Below, piece by piece: positions 42,157 through 48,333 of a stretch of 64,000 nucleotides of DNA. This stretch comes from Planctomycetota bacterium (GTDB lineage Bacteria > Planctomycetota > Planctomycetia > Pirellulales > UBA1268). The position numbers and the translations under genes are program-made. The first letter of the stretch is position 1, and each line of letters starts with the position of its first letter. The notes under the pieces are model-generated. The model was not told the DNA's origin. It did no database searches and saw nothing but the letters and a program-made list of their open reading frames with translations. The DNA lies in contig JAPOIM010000002.1 in NCBI GenBank assembly GCA_029978905.1, forward strand, positions 65,507-129,506, in the 5' to 3' direction.

Positions 42157-43263
42157 TCACTCGAGCCGCTGCTGCCTGCGTCGCCATCGCCAGCCGCCGA
42201 TCCCGCCCAAGCCAGCAAGCAGGAGCCCCATCGTCGACGGCTCCGGCACGGGAGCCACCAACCGGAAGCCGGTATCGTAGTTGGCCGTCGTCACGGAGAT
42301 GTCCAAACCAGCCCCGGCACCAAATGCATTCAGGTTCCAAGCTCCACCGCGCAGGATCGCGCTGCCCGTTGAACCAGCCGTCGACGTCCATTCCGACACA
42401 TTACCAGTCTGGTCGAACGTGCCGTAGTAACTCGCGCTGCCCGAGTAGGACCCCACATCAGTGAGGTAGTTTTGCGTTGAATCAAGCGTACTGCTCTGCG
42501 TAAGCGAATACGTCCCGCTTGGCGCTGTACCGACATACACGTTCGCTTGATTTGGCGTACTCCCAACTGCGTTGCCAGGGGCGATGTCACTCTGCGTTGC
42601 GTAGTCGGTGTAGGTGCCCGTGCTCCCGTTGTAGTAAGCGGCTTTGTACCACTGATCCGATGTGGGAAGCGCATAGATGGGAGCCGCACTCGTGTTGGGA
42701 TTCGTTAGGTTCAGCGCAACTACACCCGTCGCTCCAGATAAGTTGTACGCCCCGTTCTCAGTCGTACTTGCAGCTTGCACCCCGGTGGATGGCTGCCCAT
42801 TCGCCATCCAATTCGCGAAGCGGGCGGCGTTGGACCAATTCACAAACGTTACTGGTCTATTCGCGGTCGTTGCCGCAGCGTACTGCGTGCCTCTTGGCCC
42901 CGTCGCGGAATACACGTACAGGTCACCAGTCGTCCCGTTTCCCGTCCGCGAGATCCCGCCATTTTGATTAGCGTCGTAAGACGTGTTGAAGATTGTCTCG
43001 CTGCTGGTCTTCGCTACGGCGTTGAGAAACTCAACGTACTGACCGATGGTCACTTCGTATTTGCTGATTTGATACGAAGTGGCAACCGCGCCATACCCGC
43101 CTGTATCAGCCGTGTTGCCCGGATTGCCGACGGTGACCATCGACATGGTGACGGCCGCGGCGTCCCGTGGCACTACGGCTGACGCAAGACACGTGAAGAC
43201 ACAAGCGACGCAGATCATTGCCCTTTTGGGCAATGAACGGCCAAAAAAAATGTCACAAACCAT
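42157..43263 (-). CDS. PEP-CTERM protein with FGE-sulfatase/SUMF1-like (lectin-type) domain
   Basis: Signal peptide; MVTVGNPGN, KYEVTIGQY.EFLN, RPVTFVNW.NAARFANW, LPTSDQWYKAAYY, DQTGNVSEW, RGGAW, GFRL; C-terminal VPEPST + TM + RWRRR. Confidence 0.92.
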   Translation of the reverse strand: MVCDIFFGRSLPKRAMICVACVFTCLASAVVPRDAAAVTMSMVTVGNPGNTADTGGYGAVATSYQISKYEVTIGQYVEFLNAVAKTSSETIFNTSYDANQNGGISRTGNGTTGDLYVYSATGPRGTQYAAATTANRPVTFVNWSNAARFANWMANGQPSTGVQAASTTENGAYNLSGATGVVALNLTNPNTSAAPIYALPTSDQWYKAAYYNGSTGTYTDYATQSDIAPGNAVGSTPNQANVYVGTAPSGTYSLTQSSTLDSTQNYLTDVGSYSGSASYYGTFDQTGNVSEWTSTAGSTGSAILRGGAWNLNAFGAGAGLDISVTTANYDTGFRLVAPVPEPSTMGLLLAGLGGIGGWRWRRRQQRLE

Positions 43264-43433
43264 TCCAACACGATGCCCTCAGCACCGCCCCCTAATCAAA
43301 AACCATGTTCCTAAAACAGTGTTTCGCGGGATAGCCGGGCAAAAACCCCGTTCAGCCAACTCCTGCCGCCGCGGCTAAAAAACCGCCTCGGCGAACGAGG
43401 AGAGAAGTCTCAACACGAACTGATGGATAAGGC

Positions 43434-43955
43434 TCAACCGAGCATAACCACCGCGAGAGCCACCACCGCAGCGCCCATGCTCACCGGCAGGGTGAGGATC
43501 GAGCGGGCGAGATCGCGGCCAGGGAGAATCATCTCCCGCTCGGCAGGCGTCATCTCGAGGAACTCCTCGAGGGCAGAGATCGATATCGGCTTGACCATTG
43601 AGTGGTCAGCGCCATGCTCAGTGGCTTCCCAATGACCGGGCTTGCCCGGGACTTCACTGACGATGGCCACACGCTGCTCGCCACCTTCAGTATCGGTGGC
43701 CTTGCTAGTCTCAAGGTGATGGCGAAGCAGTTCGACAAAGTCGAGGCCCGACATGTCATCAAGATCAGCAGCCACGAGCCAGGCATCGACCGATCGCCGC
43801 GACGCCAGAGCCAAACCTTCCTCTCCTGAACTTCTCAGGTGGAGATGGATCCGTCCTTCACGGGCACTGGCAGCAAGATCGTGATACGCGTCAAACCGTG
43901 GATCAACAACGACAACGTTTGGCGTGTGGATCGTCTTCGCGCTCTTGCTGACCAT
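43434..43955 (-). CDS. Atypical (pseudo-)receiver domain protein with C-terminal TM anchor
   Basis: VVVVDPR, DAWLVAADLDDMSGLDF, GADHSMVKPI; phospho-acceptor position is Ala; hydrophobic tail AAVVALAVVMLG. Confidence 0.72.
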   Translation of the reverse strand: MVSKSAKTIHTPNVVVVDPRFDAYHDLAASAREGRIHLHLRSSGEEGLALASRRSVDAWLVAADLDDMSGLDFVELLRHHLETSKATDTEGGEQRVAIVSEVPGKPGHWEATEHGADHSMVKPISISALEEFLEMTPAEREMILPGRDLARSILTLPVSMGAAVVALAVVMLG

Positions 43956-44006
43956 GATGAACTCCCTGGCTAAAAACCGAGTGAATGATTCGATGGATTG
44001 GTGATC

Positions 44007-44522
44007 TCAGAGAACGCCAGTGGCGGTCTCAACATCAGCGGTCGGCCGAAGGGCCGCTACGAGTTCCGCTGCGACTGGCTGCACGAGGTAGCCAGCAATG
44101 CCGGCCGAAAGAGCCTCTTGTTCTTCTTCGAGGCTGTAGTCGTCGGCCACCATGAAGATGCCGGCGTGACGAGCCTGCCCAACGCGACCGAGCGATCGGC
44201 GATGCCCTCGCAGGAACGGATCGACCTCGCCTTGGCTAACCTGATCCGCCAGCAGCGGCAGCAGGTCAAAACCTTCCATGTCGGGCAGGTCAGTGCTCAC
44301 CAGCCACACATCGGCTCGGAATCGCCTCGCCAACTTCAGGGCAGACTGTGCGTCGCAACAGAAGTGCAATCCGATCTCGCCATTCGTCGCGGCGTCAACG
44401 AAGTGAGCGTAACGATCGCAGCGCGGGTCAACGATCACCACTTCGCAGGCTTCGCGACTGGTGTCGGCAGGAAGCGATACGACGCTCTTTGCTGAACGGT
44501 CGTAGGCGTTGGGGAGGTTCAT
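44007..44522 (-). CDS. Atypical (pseudo-)receiver domain protein
   Basis: VVIVDPR, DVWLVSTDLPDMEGFDL, AGIAGYLVQPV; acceptor position is Ser and the conserved Lys is Gln. Confidence 0.72.
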   Translation of the reverse strand: MNLPNAYDRSAKSVVSLPADTSREACEVVIVDPRCDRYAHFVDAATNGEIGLHFCCDAQSALKLARRFRADVWLVSTDLPDMEGFDLLPLLADQVSQGEVDPFLRGHRRSLGRVGQARHAGIFMVADDYSLEEEQEALSAGIAGYLVQPVAAELVAALRPTADVETATGVL

Positions 44523-44586
44523 GGAGCGTTTCTCTGAAAGCGGTGGACGGAAATGCGATTGGAAGATGCGGGTTCAAATCAGCGGC

Positions 44587-44970
44587 TCAGTCGTCAACAC
44601 CAACGGTGGGACGGGAGGCGGAGGTCTTCGACGCCACGGCAGCTCGCAGGGTGTCCCAGCTCGACGTCATCGGAGGCACACCAAACAGGTCACCAACCAC
44701 GGCTGGGAGCACGGCAGCCGAGATACCCGTCACCGAACGAGCGGCGACCACCTGCTCGGCTTCGGCACGAGTCAGCCCCATCACCGAGATCACCGCTGTG
44801 TCGCTGAGATCAAGCGTCAACGAACCACTCGGGAGCGGCACGGACAGAAACGTGGGCTCGATGCCGAGGGCCTTTCGGCTCCCTGCGTCGTCAGCAAAGG
44901 CAGTCGTGCCACATGCAAGCGTCGCGACAACCGCAGCGACCAACAGTTTGAATGAAGATGCACGTGACAT
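44587..44970 (-). CDS. Small secreted hypothetical protein (127 aa)
   Basis: Signal peptide ending AFA-DD; AGGGG upstream of the ATG; co-oriented with the two receiver genes. Confidence 0.65.
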   Translation of the reverse strand: MSRASSFKLLVAAVVATLACGTTAFADDAGSRKALGIEPTFLSVPLPSGSLTLDLSDTAVISVMGLTRAEAEQVVAARSVTGISAAVLPAVVGDLFGVPPMTSSWDTLRAAVASKTSASRPTVGVDD

Positions 44971-45058
44971 GAGGAACCCCTGAAAATGCTTGAACCAGTG
45001 ATGAATGCGACCAAGAAACCCGACGAACCGCGTGCACTCGGCACGCCCTGACCACGGC

Positions 45059-45187
45059 CTACGAGACGACGGAGATCAGTGACAAAAACGCGACAATCGG
45101 CACCACACAGCAGAGGATGTCTGCATGCGTGAGCTGCAAGGAATCAGCCAGCGACGAGGCTGAACCTGCCTTCCCACGAAAGTTCAT
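45059..45187 (-). CDS. Unannotated 42-aa small membrane protein
   Basis: AGGAG 7 nt before ATG 45187; MNFRGKAGSASSLADSLQLTHADILCCVVPIVAFLSLISVVS*; about 70 nt downstream of the predicted sigma54 start site. Confidence 0.55.
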   Translation of the reverse strand: MNFRGKAGSASSLADSLQLTHADILCCVVPIVAFLSLISVVS

Positions 45188-45267
45188 GAGCGAACTCCTA
45201 TTTCAAAAACGGTGTGAACGATCCATCAGCGGACGGTGCGTAAGCACTACCTGCTGTTAGTTGCATT

Positions 45268-45284
45268 TGCAGATCGCGTGCCAA
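45268..45284 (-). promoter_or_regulatory. Sigma54 (RpoN) -24/-12 promoter
   Basis: Minus strand TTGGCACGCGATCTGCA: perfect TGGCACG, GG-N10-GC spacing, one mismatch (C for T) in TTGC. Confidence 0.75.
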
Positions 45285-45382: not shown

Positions 45383-45509
45383 TGGAGCGAATCGCACCAC
45401 CCCCTGGAGCGATTCGCTCCAGCCCCCCCCCCTAAAAGACCTAAAGGTGGAGCGATTCGCTCCACCCCCCTGGTGCGATTCGCTCCACCCCCTGGTGCGA
45501 ATCGCGCCA
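45383..45509. repeat. Array of five 17-bp palindromes, consensus TGGWGCGA-W-TCGCDCCA, joined by C-runs
   Basis: Units start at 45383, 45405, 45448, 45471 and 45493 (spacings 22, 43, 23, 22 bp). Units 2 and 3 are identical: TGGAGCGATTCGCTCCA. Confidence 0.92.
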
Positions 45510-45587: not shown

Positions 45588-46946
45588 ATGCACCCCACCG
45601 AAACACCGACTGCAGAGGGCAAGAGGCTCGCTCCCGTGCTGGGCACGTGGCAACTGTGGGGGCTCGCTGTCGGGCTCGTGATTTCCGGCGAGTACTTTGG
45701 CTGGAGCTACGGATGGGCCCAGGCAGGCACGCTCGGGTTCCTGGTGACCACGCTCGTCGTCGCGGTGATGTACACGAGCTTCATCTTTAGTTTCACCGAA
45801 CTCACCACCGCCATTCCAGATGCGGGGGGCCCGTTCGCCTACGCAAGGCGGGCATTCGGCCCCCTCGGCGGGGCCATCGCCGGCTGGGCCACGTTGATCG
45901 AGTTTGTGTTTGCCCCGCCAGCGATCGCCCTCGCCATCGGGGCTTACGTGGCCGTGCAGTTCCCTGGTCTCGAGCCTGCCTGGACGGCCGTGGGGGCCTA
46001 CGCCATCTTCATGCTCCTCAACATCCTCGGCGTCACGATCGCCGCGAACTTTGAGCTGTTTGTGACCCTGCTGGCGGTTGGCGAACTGCTCGTGTTTATG
46101 GGGGTGGTCGCCCCGGGTTTCTCGTGGGACCATTTCAAGGCGGGCGGATGGGCCGGCAGCGATCAGTTCAGCCCCGAGGCTGTCGGCGGGATCCTCGCCG
46201 CCACGCCCTTTGCCATCTGGTTCTTCCTGGCGATCGAGGGGGTGGCAATGGCCGCGGAAGAAGCCCGCGATCCGCACCGCACCATTCCACGGGCCTACAT
46301 TGGCGGCATGCTCACGCTCCTCGCGCTCGCGCTCGGCGTGATGTTTTTTGCCGGCGGCGTGGGGAACTGGTCGGAACTGGCCAACATCAACGACCCACTG
46401 CCCCAAGCGATGAAGAAAGTGGTTGGCGAGGCGAGCGGCTGGCTCCACATGCTCGTCTGGCTCGGCCTGTTTGGGCTCGTCGCGTCCTTTCACGGGATCA
46501 TCATGGGCTACTCGCGGCAGATCTTCGCCATGGCCCGCGCTGGCTACCTGCCGAGGCGACTAGCGATGCTCCACCCCACCCGCGGCACTCCCTGGGTGGC
46601 GATCCTCGCCGGCGGTGTCGTGGGGATCGCAGCCATCTTTAGCGACTCGGTCGTCGTCCTTGGTGGGCAGCCGTTGACCGCCAACATCGTCACCATGGCC
46701 GTGCTCGGCGCGATGGTGATGTACATCTCCGCCATGGCGAGCCTGTTTGCCTTGCGCCGTCGTGAACCCGAGTTGCCTCGCTCCTTTCCAGCCCTCGGCT
46801 ACCCATGGGTGCCCGGCCTCGCGCTCGCCTTGGCCGTCTTTTGCCTCGGCACCGTGATCTGGTCCAACCCCGGCGTGAGCCTGGTCTTCGGTGGCTTGAT
46901 GACAGCGGCGGTGGCAGGGCACATGCTCTTTGGCCTCGAGCGGTGA
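45588..46946 (+). CDS. eat: Ethanolamine permease (APC family)
   Basis: LWGLAVGLVISGEYFGWSYG, PDAGGPFAYARRAFG, PFAIWFFLAIEG, ASFHGII; 12 TM helices; directly upstream of eutB. Confidence 0.93.
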   Translation: MHPTETPTAEGKRLAPVLGTWQLWGLAVGLVISGEYFGWSYGWAQAGTLGFLVTTLVVAVMYTSFIFSFTELTTAIPDAGGPFAYARRAFGPLGGAIAGWATLIEFVFAPPAIALAIGAYVAVQFPGLEPAWTAVGAYAIFMLLNILGVTIAANFELFVTLLAVGELLVFMGVVAPGFSWDHFKAGGWAGSDQFSPEAVGGILAATPFAIWFFLAIEGVAMAAEEARDPHRTIPRAYIGGMLTLLALALGVMFFAGGVGNWSELANINDPLPQAMKKVVGEASGWLHMLVWLGLFGLVASFHGIIMGYSRQIFAMARAGYLPRRLAMLHPTRGTPWVAILAGGVVGIAAIFSDSVVVLGGQPLTANIVTMAVLGAMVMYISAMASLFALRRREPELPRSFPALGYPWVPGLALALAVFCLGTVIWSNPGVSLVFGGLMTAAVAGHMLFGLER

Positions 46947-46956
46947 AGGAGCGGGA

Positions 46957-48333
46957 ATGGCCTACCAACACACCCTCGACAGCCGCGTGTGGCACTTTCC
47001 TGATCTGAAGACGCTGCTCGCGAAGGCCACGCCACACCGCTCAGGCGATGTGCTCGCTGGTGTCGCCGCCGACTCGCCCGTGGAGCGGACCGCCGCCCGC
47101 ATGGCCTTGGCCGACCTCCCGCTCTCCCGGTTTCTCGAGGAACCGGTGGTGCCCGCTGAAACGGACGAGGTTACGCGGCTGATCTTTGAGAGCCACTGCC
47201 GCGACGCGTTTTCGCCAGTGGCCCACCTCACCGTGGGCGATTTCCGCGACTGGTTGCTGAGCGACGCGGCAGACGAAGCCTCCCTGACGGCGCTCCGCCC
47301 CGGGCTGACGCCCGAGATGGTGGCGGCCGTGAGCAAGTTGATGCGTCAACAAGACCTCATCAGCGTGGCTCGCAAGTGCCGTGTCGTCACCCGTTTTCGC
47401 AACACGATCGGGCTCCCCGGCACGCTGGCGATGCGACTGCAGCCAAACCATCCGGCCGATGATCCCCGAGGCGTGCTCGCCGGCGTCCTCGATGGGCTGA
47501 TGTATGGCTGTGGCGACGCCGTGATCGGCGTCAACCCTGTCAGCGACGACATGACCACGCTGGCAATGTTGCTTCGAAACCTCGATGAGGTGATCCAGCG
47601 TTTTGCGATCCCCACCCAGGCGTGTGTCCTCGCGCATGTCAGCAGCCAGATCGAAGCGATCAATGCCGGCCTGCCTGTTGACCTCGTGTTTCAGTCAATC
47701 GGCGGCACCGAGGCCACCAACCGCAGTTTCGGCATCAGCCTGGCCATGCTCCGCGAAGCCCACGATGCCGCCCTTGCCACCGGCCGAGGCACCGTCGGCA
47801 GCAATGTGATGTACTTCGAGACAGGCCAGGGCTCGGCCCTCTCGGCAAACGCCCACCACGGTGTCGATCAGCAAACCTGCGAAGCCCGGGCCTACGGTGT
47901 GGCTCGCGCCTTTGATCCGCTCATTTGCAACACCGTCGTCGGCTTCATCGGGCCGGAGTATCTCCACGATGGCAAGCAGATCATCCGGGCAGGTCTGGAG
48001 GATCACTTCTGCGGCAAGCTCCTCGGCCTGCCGATCGGCTGCGACGCCTGCTACACCAACCATGCCGAGGCCGATGCCGACGACATGGACTCGCTGATGA
48101 CGCTCCTGGCCACGGCGGGCGTGACGTTCCTCATTGGGGTGCCAGGCGCCGACGATGTGATGCTTGGCTACCAGAGTCTGTCGTTCCACGACGCGCTCTA
48201 TCTTCGCGAGGTGTTTGGCCTGCGAAGGGCGCCGGAGTTTGAGGCGTGGCTCGCCGAGATGGACCTCCTGGACCGCCACGGCCGCTTGCTGCCTGTCTCG
48301 ACACGACACCCGCTGCTCTCCATGCAGACATAA
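46957..48333 (+). CDS. eutB: Ethanolamine ammonia-lyase large subunit
   Basis: LLAKATPHRSGDVLAG, RLQPNHPADD, GDAVIGVNP, MYFETGQGSALS, NTVVGFIGPEYL, GLEDHFCGKLLG. Confidence 0.96.
   Translation: MAYQHTLDSRVWHFPDLKTLLAKATPHRSGDVLAGVAADSPVERTAARMALADLPLSRFLEEPVVPAETDEVTRLIFESHCRDAFSPVAHLTVGDFRDWLLSDAADEASLTALRPGLTPEMVAAVSKLMRQQDLISVARKCRVVTRFRNTIGLPGTLAMRLQPNHPADDPRGVLAGVLDGLMYGCGDAVIGVNPVSDDMTTLAMLLRNLDEVIQRFAIPTQACVLAHVSSQIEAINAGLPVDLVFQSIGGTEATNRSFGISLAMLREAHDAALATGRGTVGSNVMYFETGQGSALSANAHHGVDQQTCEARAYGVARAFDPLICNTVVGFIGPEYLHDGKQIIRAGLEDHFCGKLLGLPIGCDACYTNHAEADADDMDSLMTLLATAGVTFLIGVPGADDVMLGYQSLSFHDALYLREVFGLRRAPEFEAWLAEMDLLDRHGRLLPVSTRHPLLSMQT

Follow-up and report, generated by a model that had tools for sequence, protein, structure and literature searches.

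Among the closest described relatives of the system reported here are the PEP-CTERM regulons of Proteobacteria. Haft et al. 2006 (PMC1569441) described the proteobacterial PrsK/PrsR/PrsT system together with a 'PEP-CTERM box', a motif found in Proteobacteria only, and RpoN-dependent PEP-CTERM genes act in floc formation (PMC9850573). In this work we analysed a 64,000-nucleotide stretch of the genome of a Planctomycetota bacterium of the order Pirellulales (assembly GCA_029978905.1, contig JAPOIM010000002.1), which we call the window, and specifically four minus-strand genes of it, p42, p127, rec1 and rec2, which form a sigma-54-dependent, enhancer-controlled operon (43434-45283) followed by a PEP-CTERM gene. 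The system combines a sigma-54/enhancer PEP-CTERM regulon with pseudo-receivers. Both kinds are known, and the combination was not found described. Actually, an earlier note on this DNA had proposed an undescribed module, and our literature searches returned no description of it.

Regarding the Prs system, in both cases a sigma-54 promoter and a conserved upstream activator site stand before many PEP-CTERM genes, and in both the regulon is defined by a cis-element whose phylogenetic profile fits one activator. However, the enhancer here is a different 17-bp dyad, unlike the motif of Haft et al., the candidate activator has no receiver domain, whereas PrsR is of the NtrC type with a receiver, and the best-conserved operon encodes aspartate-less (Asp-less) receivers and a microprotein that have no Prs counterpart. 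Among six activators of the genome (five receiver-bearing ones and the candidate on contig C213 that is treated below), the best score against PrsR (TIGR02915, cut-off 502.6) was 372 bits, the C213 protein reaching 263 bits, and the best match to PrsK (TIGR02916, cut-off 300) was of 99 bits and covered the kinase core only. The analogy with PrsK/PrsR that the earlier note drew therefore stands for the logic, but there is no PrsK or PrsR equivalog. The cassette encodes no kinase, just as that note had said. Sigma-54 control of PEP-CTERM proteins, previously known from Proteobacteria only, is thus extended to Planctomycetota, with a different logic and no kinase.

The second comparison is with the pseudo-receivers or aspartate-less receivers (ALR), which are recognisable receivers without the phosphorylation-site Asp (PMC12632262). 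The proteins rec1 and rec2 share with them the (beta-alpha)5 fold, the missing Asp and the loss of other active-site residues. Nevertheless, rec1 and rec2 occur as stand-alone proteins, of which one is tail-anchored; their clade is distinct and scores under the PF00072 gathering value, and their genes show a constant association with sigma-54 promoters.

Receiver-less sigma-54 activators that are regulated in trans are PspF, with PspA/PspB/PspC, and HrpR/HrpS, with HrpV/HrpG. There as here, no sensory domain is found in the activator, an operon that it controls itself (putatively so in our case) includes the genes of small regulators, and small membrane-anchored proteins could sequester a soluble regulator. 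However, there is no sequence or fold relation, the resemblance is one of logic only, and the interaction is inferred in our case. The cassette proteins gave no PspA, PspB, PspC or HrpV domain match, and the genome has a separate PspF-PspA pair on contig C20. Finally, in the NtrC1/DctD-type activators a receiver domain in cis represses the assembly of the AAA+ domain. Here too a receiver fold is tied to a sigma-54 AAA+ activator, and in other Pirellulales families the two are adjacent genes, like a split NtrC. The difference is that the receiver forms a polypeptide of its own, whose gene lies downstream of that of the activator, and that it is not phosphorylatable and is itself controlled by sigma-54.

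Five co-oriented minus-strand genes, a 170-bp gap before the last of them and a -24/-12 sigma-54 promoter had been listed for this locus, and a check of the open reading frames (ORFs) found all of them in place (Table 1). The promoter alone was not above chance, as the window contains 5 one-mismatch matches to TGGCACGCGATCTGCA against 2.45 expected. The assignment is validated by the conservation of the promoter across orthologous loci and not by single-match statistics: the consensus is TTTGGCACG-N4-GTGCAT, and 100% of the 69 orthologous promoters have its GG and GC. The features by which a sigma-54 promoter is predicted, namely GG at -24, GC at -12, canonical spacing, rpoN (which is on the contig of the window) and activators (the genome encodes 11 sigma-54 activators), are all found. 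The sigma-54-driven unit that had been proposed is supported.

Table 1. Positions of the operon, its control elements and the following PEP-CTERM gene in the window
Feature	Positions	Strand	Description
PAL array	45383..45509	unstranded	enhancer-like; five 17-bp palindromes TGGWGCGAWTCGCWCCA
sigma-54 promoter	45268..45283	-	TGGCACGCGATCTGCA; predicted transcription start near 45257
p42	45059..45187	-	first gene of the operon; 42-aa microprotein with C-terminal hydrophobic membrane helix
p127	44587..44970	-	127 aa; secreted, Sec-type signal peptide
rec1	44007..44522	-	171 aa; soluble Asp-less receiver (pseudo-receiver), Ser76 at the phospho-acceptor position
rec2	43434..43955	-	173 aa; tail-anchored Asp-less receiver, Ala62 at the acceptor position, C-terminal transmembrane helix at residues 161-172
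hairpin	43377..43400	-	weak, terminator-like; CCTCGTTCGCCGAGG then CGGTTTTTT; 34 nt past the rec2 stop codon
PEP-CTERM gene	42157..43263	-	368 aa; 170 bp past rec2; Cys-free FGE-sulfatase-fold domain; loosely coupled regulon member

The palindromes (PAL) of the array start at 45383, 45405, 45448, 45471 and 45493, that is, with spacings of 22, 43, 23 and 22 bp, or about 2 or 4 helical turns. A genome-wide search gave 19 PAL sites, while the reversed control gave 0. In 157 orthologous sites, 13 of the 17 positions were conserved in at least 94%, the spacing was mostly 43-44 or 22-23 bp, and the distance from the last PAL to the promoter had a median of 119 bp. All the PAL sites of the genome itself belong to arrays about 100 bp upstream of a -24/-12 element (contigs C158, C110, C43, C12 and C219). 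A generic dispersed repeat was considered and rejected, because the sites occur solely in arrays lying 63-156 bp upstream of -24/-12 promoters. Several arrays are at contig ends, which suggests that the PAL repeats break the assembly. On the other side of the array, an ethanolamine permease gene (TIGR00908, 573 bits), followed by an ORF that is eutB-like by eye, runs divergently (45588-48333, plus strand) and starts 78 bp from the outermost palindrome. PAL was also considered as a regulator of this permease and eutBC; we rejected this, since the upstream neighbour is different at every other locus.

Regarding the two receivers, their scores against the Response_reg family of Pfam were 26.3 bits (rec1) and 24.4 bits (rec2), both under the gathering cut-off of 30.2, and neither matched the small pseudo-receiver families of Pfam at E <= 0.1. 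More than 260 homologues of rec1 exist, annotated as hypothetical or CheY-like. In the AlphaFold2 models (predicted local distance difference test score, pLDDT, of 66 for rec1 and a mean of 82 for rec2), five strands alternate with helices in a (beta-alpha)5 fold, and a Foldseek search with rec1 returned the CheY4, KdpE, PmrA and PorX receivers at E values of about 1e-5. Alignments and models place rec1 S76 and rec2 A62 at the end of beta3, which is the position of CheY D57; S, A or G occupies it in the rec1 family and A or S in that of rec2. The acidic pair after beta1 is reduced to D-P (D32-P33 in rec1, D18-P19 in rec2), and the position of the conserved Lys is Q or R across the rec1 family and K in the rec2 of the window, this K not being conserved in the rec2 orthologues. 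Thus, the canonical phospho-accepting active site, with its acidic pair, Thr/Ser after beta4 and Lys after beta5, was found in neither protein. The residue two positions past the acceptor site is acidic (D or E), and receivers are not phosphorylatable on Glu. Having no acceptor Asp, rec1 and rec2 are therefore not phosphorylatable at the canonical site, so the earlier claim of phosphorylation-independent receivers stands. Judged from their sequences and models, both are pseudo-receivers of the aspartate-less type as defined in PMC12632262.

Both rec2 and p42 are anchored through their C-terminal helices. In the case of rec2 the transmembrane tail ...TLPVGVGAAVVAIAVLMLG-stop is kept in 42 of the 44 complete orthologues, in agreement with the membrane-tethered receiver that had been proposed. 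The p42 orthologues, found at 66 loci, are 34-54 aa long and have a variable N-terminus, followed by the conserved C-terminus W[SA]LT[RQ]xD[VML]LLCxxPIxLFLSIVSLV, which runs up to the stop codon, and conservation extends to the Shine-Dalgarno region AAGGAGttcgctcATG. Although p42 matched no Pfam family, on these patterns of conservation we regard it as a real, tail-anchored microprotein, and the analysis thus adds a conserved membrane microprotein of 34-54 aa that gene callers miss. The other small protein, p127, did not match a Pfam family either. It is 80% identical to the copy in the paralogous cassette and 56-57% identical to a protein of the related genome G001. A family of secreted proteins of about 150 aa takes the same slot at about 30 other loci, and p127 is possibly homologous to it, on a weak match of 8.9 bits and a common AVLPxxVGDL motif. 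By its sequence p127 can be recognised within the genus only, and possibly a related secreted protein fills the slot elsewhere.

The unit formed by PAL, promoter, p42, rec1 and rec2 is present twice in the genome. The second complete cassette, on contig C110, encodes p42, p127, rec1 and rec2 with 93, 80, 79 and 80% identity respectively, has unchanged PAL and promoter geometry, and is followed by a different PEP-CTERM protein of 211 aa. In the family, 12 of 25 genomes have a tandem receiver pair, each pair preceded by a -24/-12 promoter and usually by p42 and PAL dyads. A scan of species-representative genomes gave 80 further loci. The unit recurs in about 60 species-level metagenome-assembled genomes (MAGs) of lake and estuary Pirellulales. 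All the 80 loci come from lake, estuary or similar MAGs labelled as Pirellulales or Planctomycetota, some of them mislabelled as Kuenenia. Among the 67 loci with at least 1.4 kb of upstream DNA, 62 had the PAL array with an in-register promoter and 55 had p42. Where enough downstream DNA was available, rec2 was found at 47 of 67 loci and a PEP-CTERM ORF starting within 3 kb downstream at 19 of 55. The secreted protein of about 150 aa varies in position, a Pro-rich secreted protein of about 100 aa is present at 20 loci, and the commonest downstream gene (26 loci) encodes a protein of about 630 aa with Peptidase_S8 and PEP-CTERM domains.

Thus, the cassette is conserved across a family of uncultured aquatic Pirellulales, and the part of it that is kept consists of PAL, the promoter, p42, rec1 and, at most loci, rec2, with p127 optional. 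Synteny in relatives had been set as a check of the five-gene module: the p42/rec1/rec2 core is syntenic, but the set of five genes is not fixed, as the downstream gene varies between an FGE-type protein, the 211-aa protein and the S8 protein of about 630 aa. In another MAG of the same genus (G002, contig C397, 973-1656; L047/L052), p127 is lacking and an ORF weakly similar to the FGE-type PEP-CTERM protein lies between rec1 and rec2.

The four genes are also seen as transcripts. Contigs of three metatranscriptomes from three studies (X25, X26 and X28) cover 86%, 84% and 60% of 43434-45187 respectively; they include p42 and bridge the p42/p127/rec1 and rec1/p127 junctions. The rec2/rec1(/p127) junction is bridged in X7 and X27, two libraries of one study, with no others supported. 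In X25, X26 and X28 the coverage begins at or below 45222, with nothing upstream of it, the predicted transcription start being near 45257. At the 3'-end it stops around the hairpin, at 43407 in X26, 43546 in X28 and 43281 in X25, where the contig reaching furthest is a strain variant with an interrupted T-run in the hairpin. None of the three has a contig on the PEP-CTERM gene, the flanking cNMP gene or the permease gene, and X25 has one contig of 262 nt in eutB (47249-47510). In the other 40 kb compared they gave scattered contigs of 150-500 nt at lower depth; 26626-27302 is among the few other stretches of the window with contigs in both X25 and X26. The paralogous cassette was detected as well, and its PEP-CTERM gene, of which the 5' two-thirds were compared, was not. 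We take these data to mean strong in situ expression of the four-gene operon, whose transcript is abundant in natural water samples, with weak read-through into the PEP-CTERM gene at most. Few genes of the organism are covered as well as this operon in natural metatranscriptomes, which suggests that it matters for the ecology of the abundant lake and estuary Pirellulales.

The product of the PEP-CTERM gene matched PEP-CTERM models over their cut-offs (PF07589, 31.7 bits; TIGR02595, 28.3 bits) and also FGE-sulfatase (PF03781, 75.7 bits), a domain absent from the earlier note. Cys is missing from the mature protein, which therefore lacks the FGE catalytic Cys pair, so that the former statement that the module contains no enzyme is right in effect. 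Going by its sequence, the FGE-type domain is presumably non-catalytic and probably a binding domain. No PAL site or sigma-54 promoter was found in the 170-bp gap, and a scan for a sigma-70 promoter was also negative, with a consensus that may not apply to planctomycetes. In the window the gene therefore has no recognisable promoter of its own; the homologues in G001 and G005 have four PAL sites and a promoter of their own each.

These data also bear on the version of the earlier note, a single co-transcribed five-gene surface/signalling operon with the PEP-CTERM protein as its output. The common orientation of the five genes, the gap without a recognisable sigma-54 or sigma-70 promoter, and the PEP-CTERM genes behind both cassettes of the genome and at 19 of 55 other loci would fit it, as would the X25 contig that passes the hairpin to 43281 and the coverage of the PEP-CTERM gene in X7 and X27. 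We think it unlikely, however, because X25, X26 and X28 cover the cassette and nothing of the 1.1-kb PEP-CTERM gene, the paralogous cassette behaves likewise in the part compared, and a terminator-like hairpin follows rec2, although the number of such hairpin sites was not above that in shuffled sequences. Moreover, the downstream genes are non-orthologous between loci, and homologues of this one have PAL sites and promoters of their own. Since the three metatranscriptomes end before it, the PEP-CTERM gene is a loosely coupled neighbour and not a firm member of the operon.

PAL sites and a promoter stand directly before PEP-CTERM genes on contig C12 of the genome itself (251 aa), on G001:C23 (366 aa), G005:C9 (352 aa), G004:C116 and G024:C3, as well as before genes for large secreted Gly-rich proteins in G001 and G002. 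The G001:C23 product is, by its N-terminal sequence, a homologue of the FGE-type protein of the window, and that of G005:C9 is of the same type. Therefore, the PAL enhancer and the promoter define a regulon of PEP-CTERM and other secreted-protein genes. The member on C12 (6158-7187; L001) lies behind three PAL sites and the promoter, and its 5' untranslated region and first 25 codons or so are homologous to the p42 gene, with the p42 ATG changed to ACG and an ORF start that lies more upstream; this gives the impression of a recombinant leader, as though a cassette had been deleted between p42 and the cargo gene. On contig C47 (1-850), a rec2-like ORF (67% identity) comes after the end of a PEP-CTERM gene, and a PAL site truncates it at about residue 110. 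Either recombination left a scar there or the assembly is chimeric at the repeat.

In order to find the activator we followed the logic of Haft et al., matching the phylogenetic profile of the cis-element to one activator. The candidate, on contig C213 (42735-44117), has the Sigma54_activat domain, the AAA lid and HTH_8, with no N-terminal domain and no receiver. Full-length orthologues (61-88% identity) are present in 12 of 12 cassette-positive genomes and in G004, G005 and G023, and G004 and G005 have PAL arrays. The 10 other genomes of the family have no orthologue, just AAA+ paralogues of about 45% identity. The PspF-like activator was also tried as the cognate regulator and rejected, because it is divergent from a pspA-like gene and adjoins the cassette at 1 of 80 loci. 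The pair on C20 (2330-4251) is a classical divergent arrangement of a PspA/IM30-like gene and a PspF-like receiver-less activator, and in G001 the orthologous activator is 1.5 kb upstream of one cassette copy.

Outside the family, three genomes have their best activator homologue (49-58% identity) directly upstream of a single rec-like gene, which is followed by PEP-CTERM genes. A survey of 200 genomes of the order gave 24 loci with stand-alone Asp-less receivers, from at least 10 families. The acceptor position was N in 22 of them, S in one and G in one. A sigma-54-like promoter was found within 260 bp upstream in 23 of the 24, a receiver-less activator gene as the immediate upstream neighbour, in the same orientation, in 13, and a PEP-CTERM ORF directly downstream also in 13. 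Four low-scoring matches with the Asp had no sigma-54 promoter, activator or PEP-CTERM feature. Because these associations recur among the 24 loci, the grouping of an activator, an Asp-less receiver and PEP-CTERM genes is an order-wide pattern, of which the window is a derived form: the activator became unlinked, the receiver was duplicated, one copy was tail-anchored and p42 was added. At one such locus (L048, G039:C85), the gap between the activator and the rec-like gene has the palindromes CTGTCCGTTTTTGGGACAG and TCGTCCGTTTGTGGACGA, about 100 bp apart and upstream of the sigma-54-like promoter of the receiver gene, which may be the enhancer of that lineage.

It could be argued that the pseudo-receivers belong to an unrelated pathway, in which they would, for instance, bind a second messenger or control some other transcription factor, and that the sigma-54 regulon merely supplies their expression. 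The partners of single-domain receivers and pseudo-receivers are highly varied (PMC12632262), the cassette is expressed where another PAL-driven PEP-CTERM gene was undetected, and in one subgroup the receiver gene is followed by an HtrA-like protease gene or by genes of unrelated enzymes. Against this, at least 10 families of the order repeat the Asp-less receiver beside a receiver-less activator, a sigma-54 promoter and PEP-CTERM genes, and we consider such a pathway very improbable. Two loci of that subgroup, which lacks p42 and rec2 (L114 and L116), show PAL, promoter, a rec1-like gene, then a gene for an HtrA/DegP-type protease of 500-700 aa (Trypsin_2 and PDZ domains) and then pdxJ.

The reading that we prefer is that the C213-type activator would bind the PAL dyads, that rec1 would act in trans as a regulatory subunit of this activator, either as anti-activator or as co-activator, and that rec2 and p42 would hold rec1 at the membrane or release it on an envelope or cargo cue. 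As the operon itself would be a target of the activator, it would regulate itself in a feedback loop. The PEP-CTERM gene of the window would be a cargo gene of the regulon type, reached here at most by attenuated read-through. Taken jointly, we give these steps about an even chance, or slightly less. The high expression of the cassette where a direct PEP-CTERM target is silent is compatible with an anti-activator in an envelope-quality role, and so are the secreted S8 or HtrA-type proteases encoded downstream at many loci, neither being a proof. Regarding the signal, we found no evidence for attachment, development or nitrogen stress, which the earlier note had put forward.

The anchoring of rec2 and p42 could also be explained by a post-transcriptional role, in which the pseudo-receivers are membrane-proximal adaptors, with rec2 and p42 in the membrane and rec1 recruited to them, and serve the export, exosortase processing or anchoring of PEP-CTERM proteins, or the polysaccharide machinery coupled to it, instead of the activator. 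PEP-CTERM cargo and small secreted proteins often follow the cassette, and pseudo-receivers such as FrzS act as hubs that recruit proteins (PMC9811614). In addition, exosortase is present in every cassette-positive relative, including 4 of the 5 genomes of the same genus. The genome itself, a MAG that is 94% complete and encodes several PEP-CTERM proteins, gave no exosortase by PF09721 or TIGR04178, and its presence in all those relatives makes an assembly gap likely. However, exosortase is also found in cassette-negative genomes, whereas the receiver-less activator tracks the cassette, and at none of the loci examined is the cassette beside exosortase or polysaccharide genes. Furthermore, other families have the gene for the Asp-less receiver right beside the activator gene, as is typical of regulator pairs. 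An adaptor role of this kind is therefore doubtful in our opinion.

Several points weigh against the preferred reading, that of rec1 as a trans-acting subunit of the C213-type activator within an expressed four-gene operon. The interaction of rec1 and rec2 with the activator is a putative one. The activator gene adjoins the cassette at 0 of the 80 loci of the family, and its phylogenetic profile may partly mirror common ancestry, since the cassette-positive genera are perhaps one clade. In G023, a MAG that is 87% complete, the activator is present and neither PAL nor the cassette was found. About 30% of the loci have no rec2, which is therefore not essential to the core. Regarding expression, the strand cannot be read from the contigs, their depth measures expression poorly, and in X7 and X27 there is coverage of the PEP-CTERM gene, in X7 of the PAL region too, so these libraries may contain DNA. 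Finally, the PAL-driven PEP-CTERM gene on C12 was not detected in the runs that detected the cassette. The members of the regulon are therefore not simply co-expressed, and we rejected regulon co-expression for this reason.

In a wider sense, stand-alone Asp-less receivers may be an undescribed class of trans-acting subunits for receiver-less sigma-54 activators, that is, a split and phosphorylation-independent NtrC, which would control the PEP-CTERM regulons of Pirellulales. In the lineage of the window a membrane switch would have evolved, in which the tail-anchored rec2 and p42 would sequester the soluble rec1, so that the status of the envelope or of exosortase cargo would feed back on transcription. 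We propose this generalisation only tentatively, as something rather less probable than its negation. In any case, a 2025 review regards the switching of bacterial pseudo-receivers as an open question (PMC12632262), and the module is a recurrent and genomically well-defined case: its single-domain Asp-less receivers go with a single receiver-less sigma-54 activator, a single enhancer motif and a single class of targets. This question can therefore be tested here.

A minor observation regards the labels of the genomes. Several public MAGs with the cassette (L055, L062, L065, L079 and others) bear the names 'Candidatus Kuenenia' or 'Planctomicrobium piriforme', and one is filed under Microbacteriaceae; wrong taxonomic labels or faulty binning are the probable cause.

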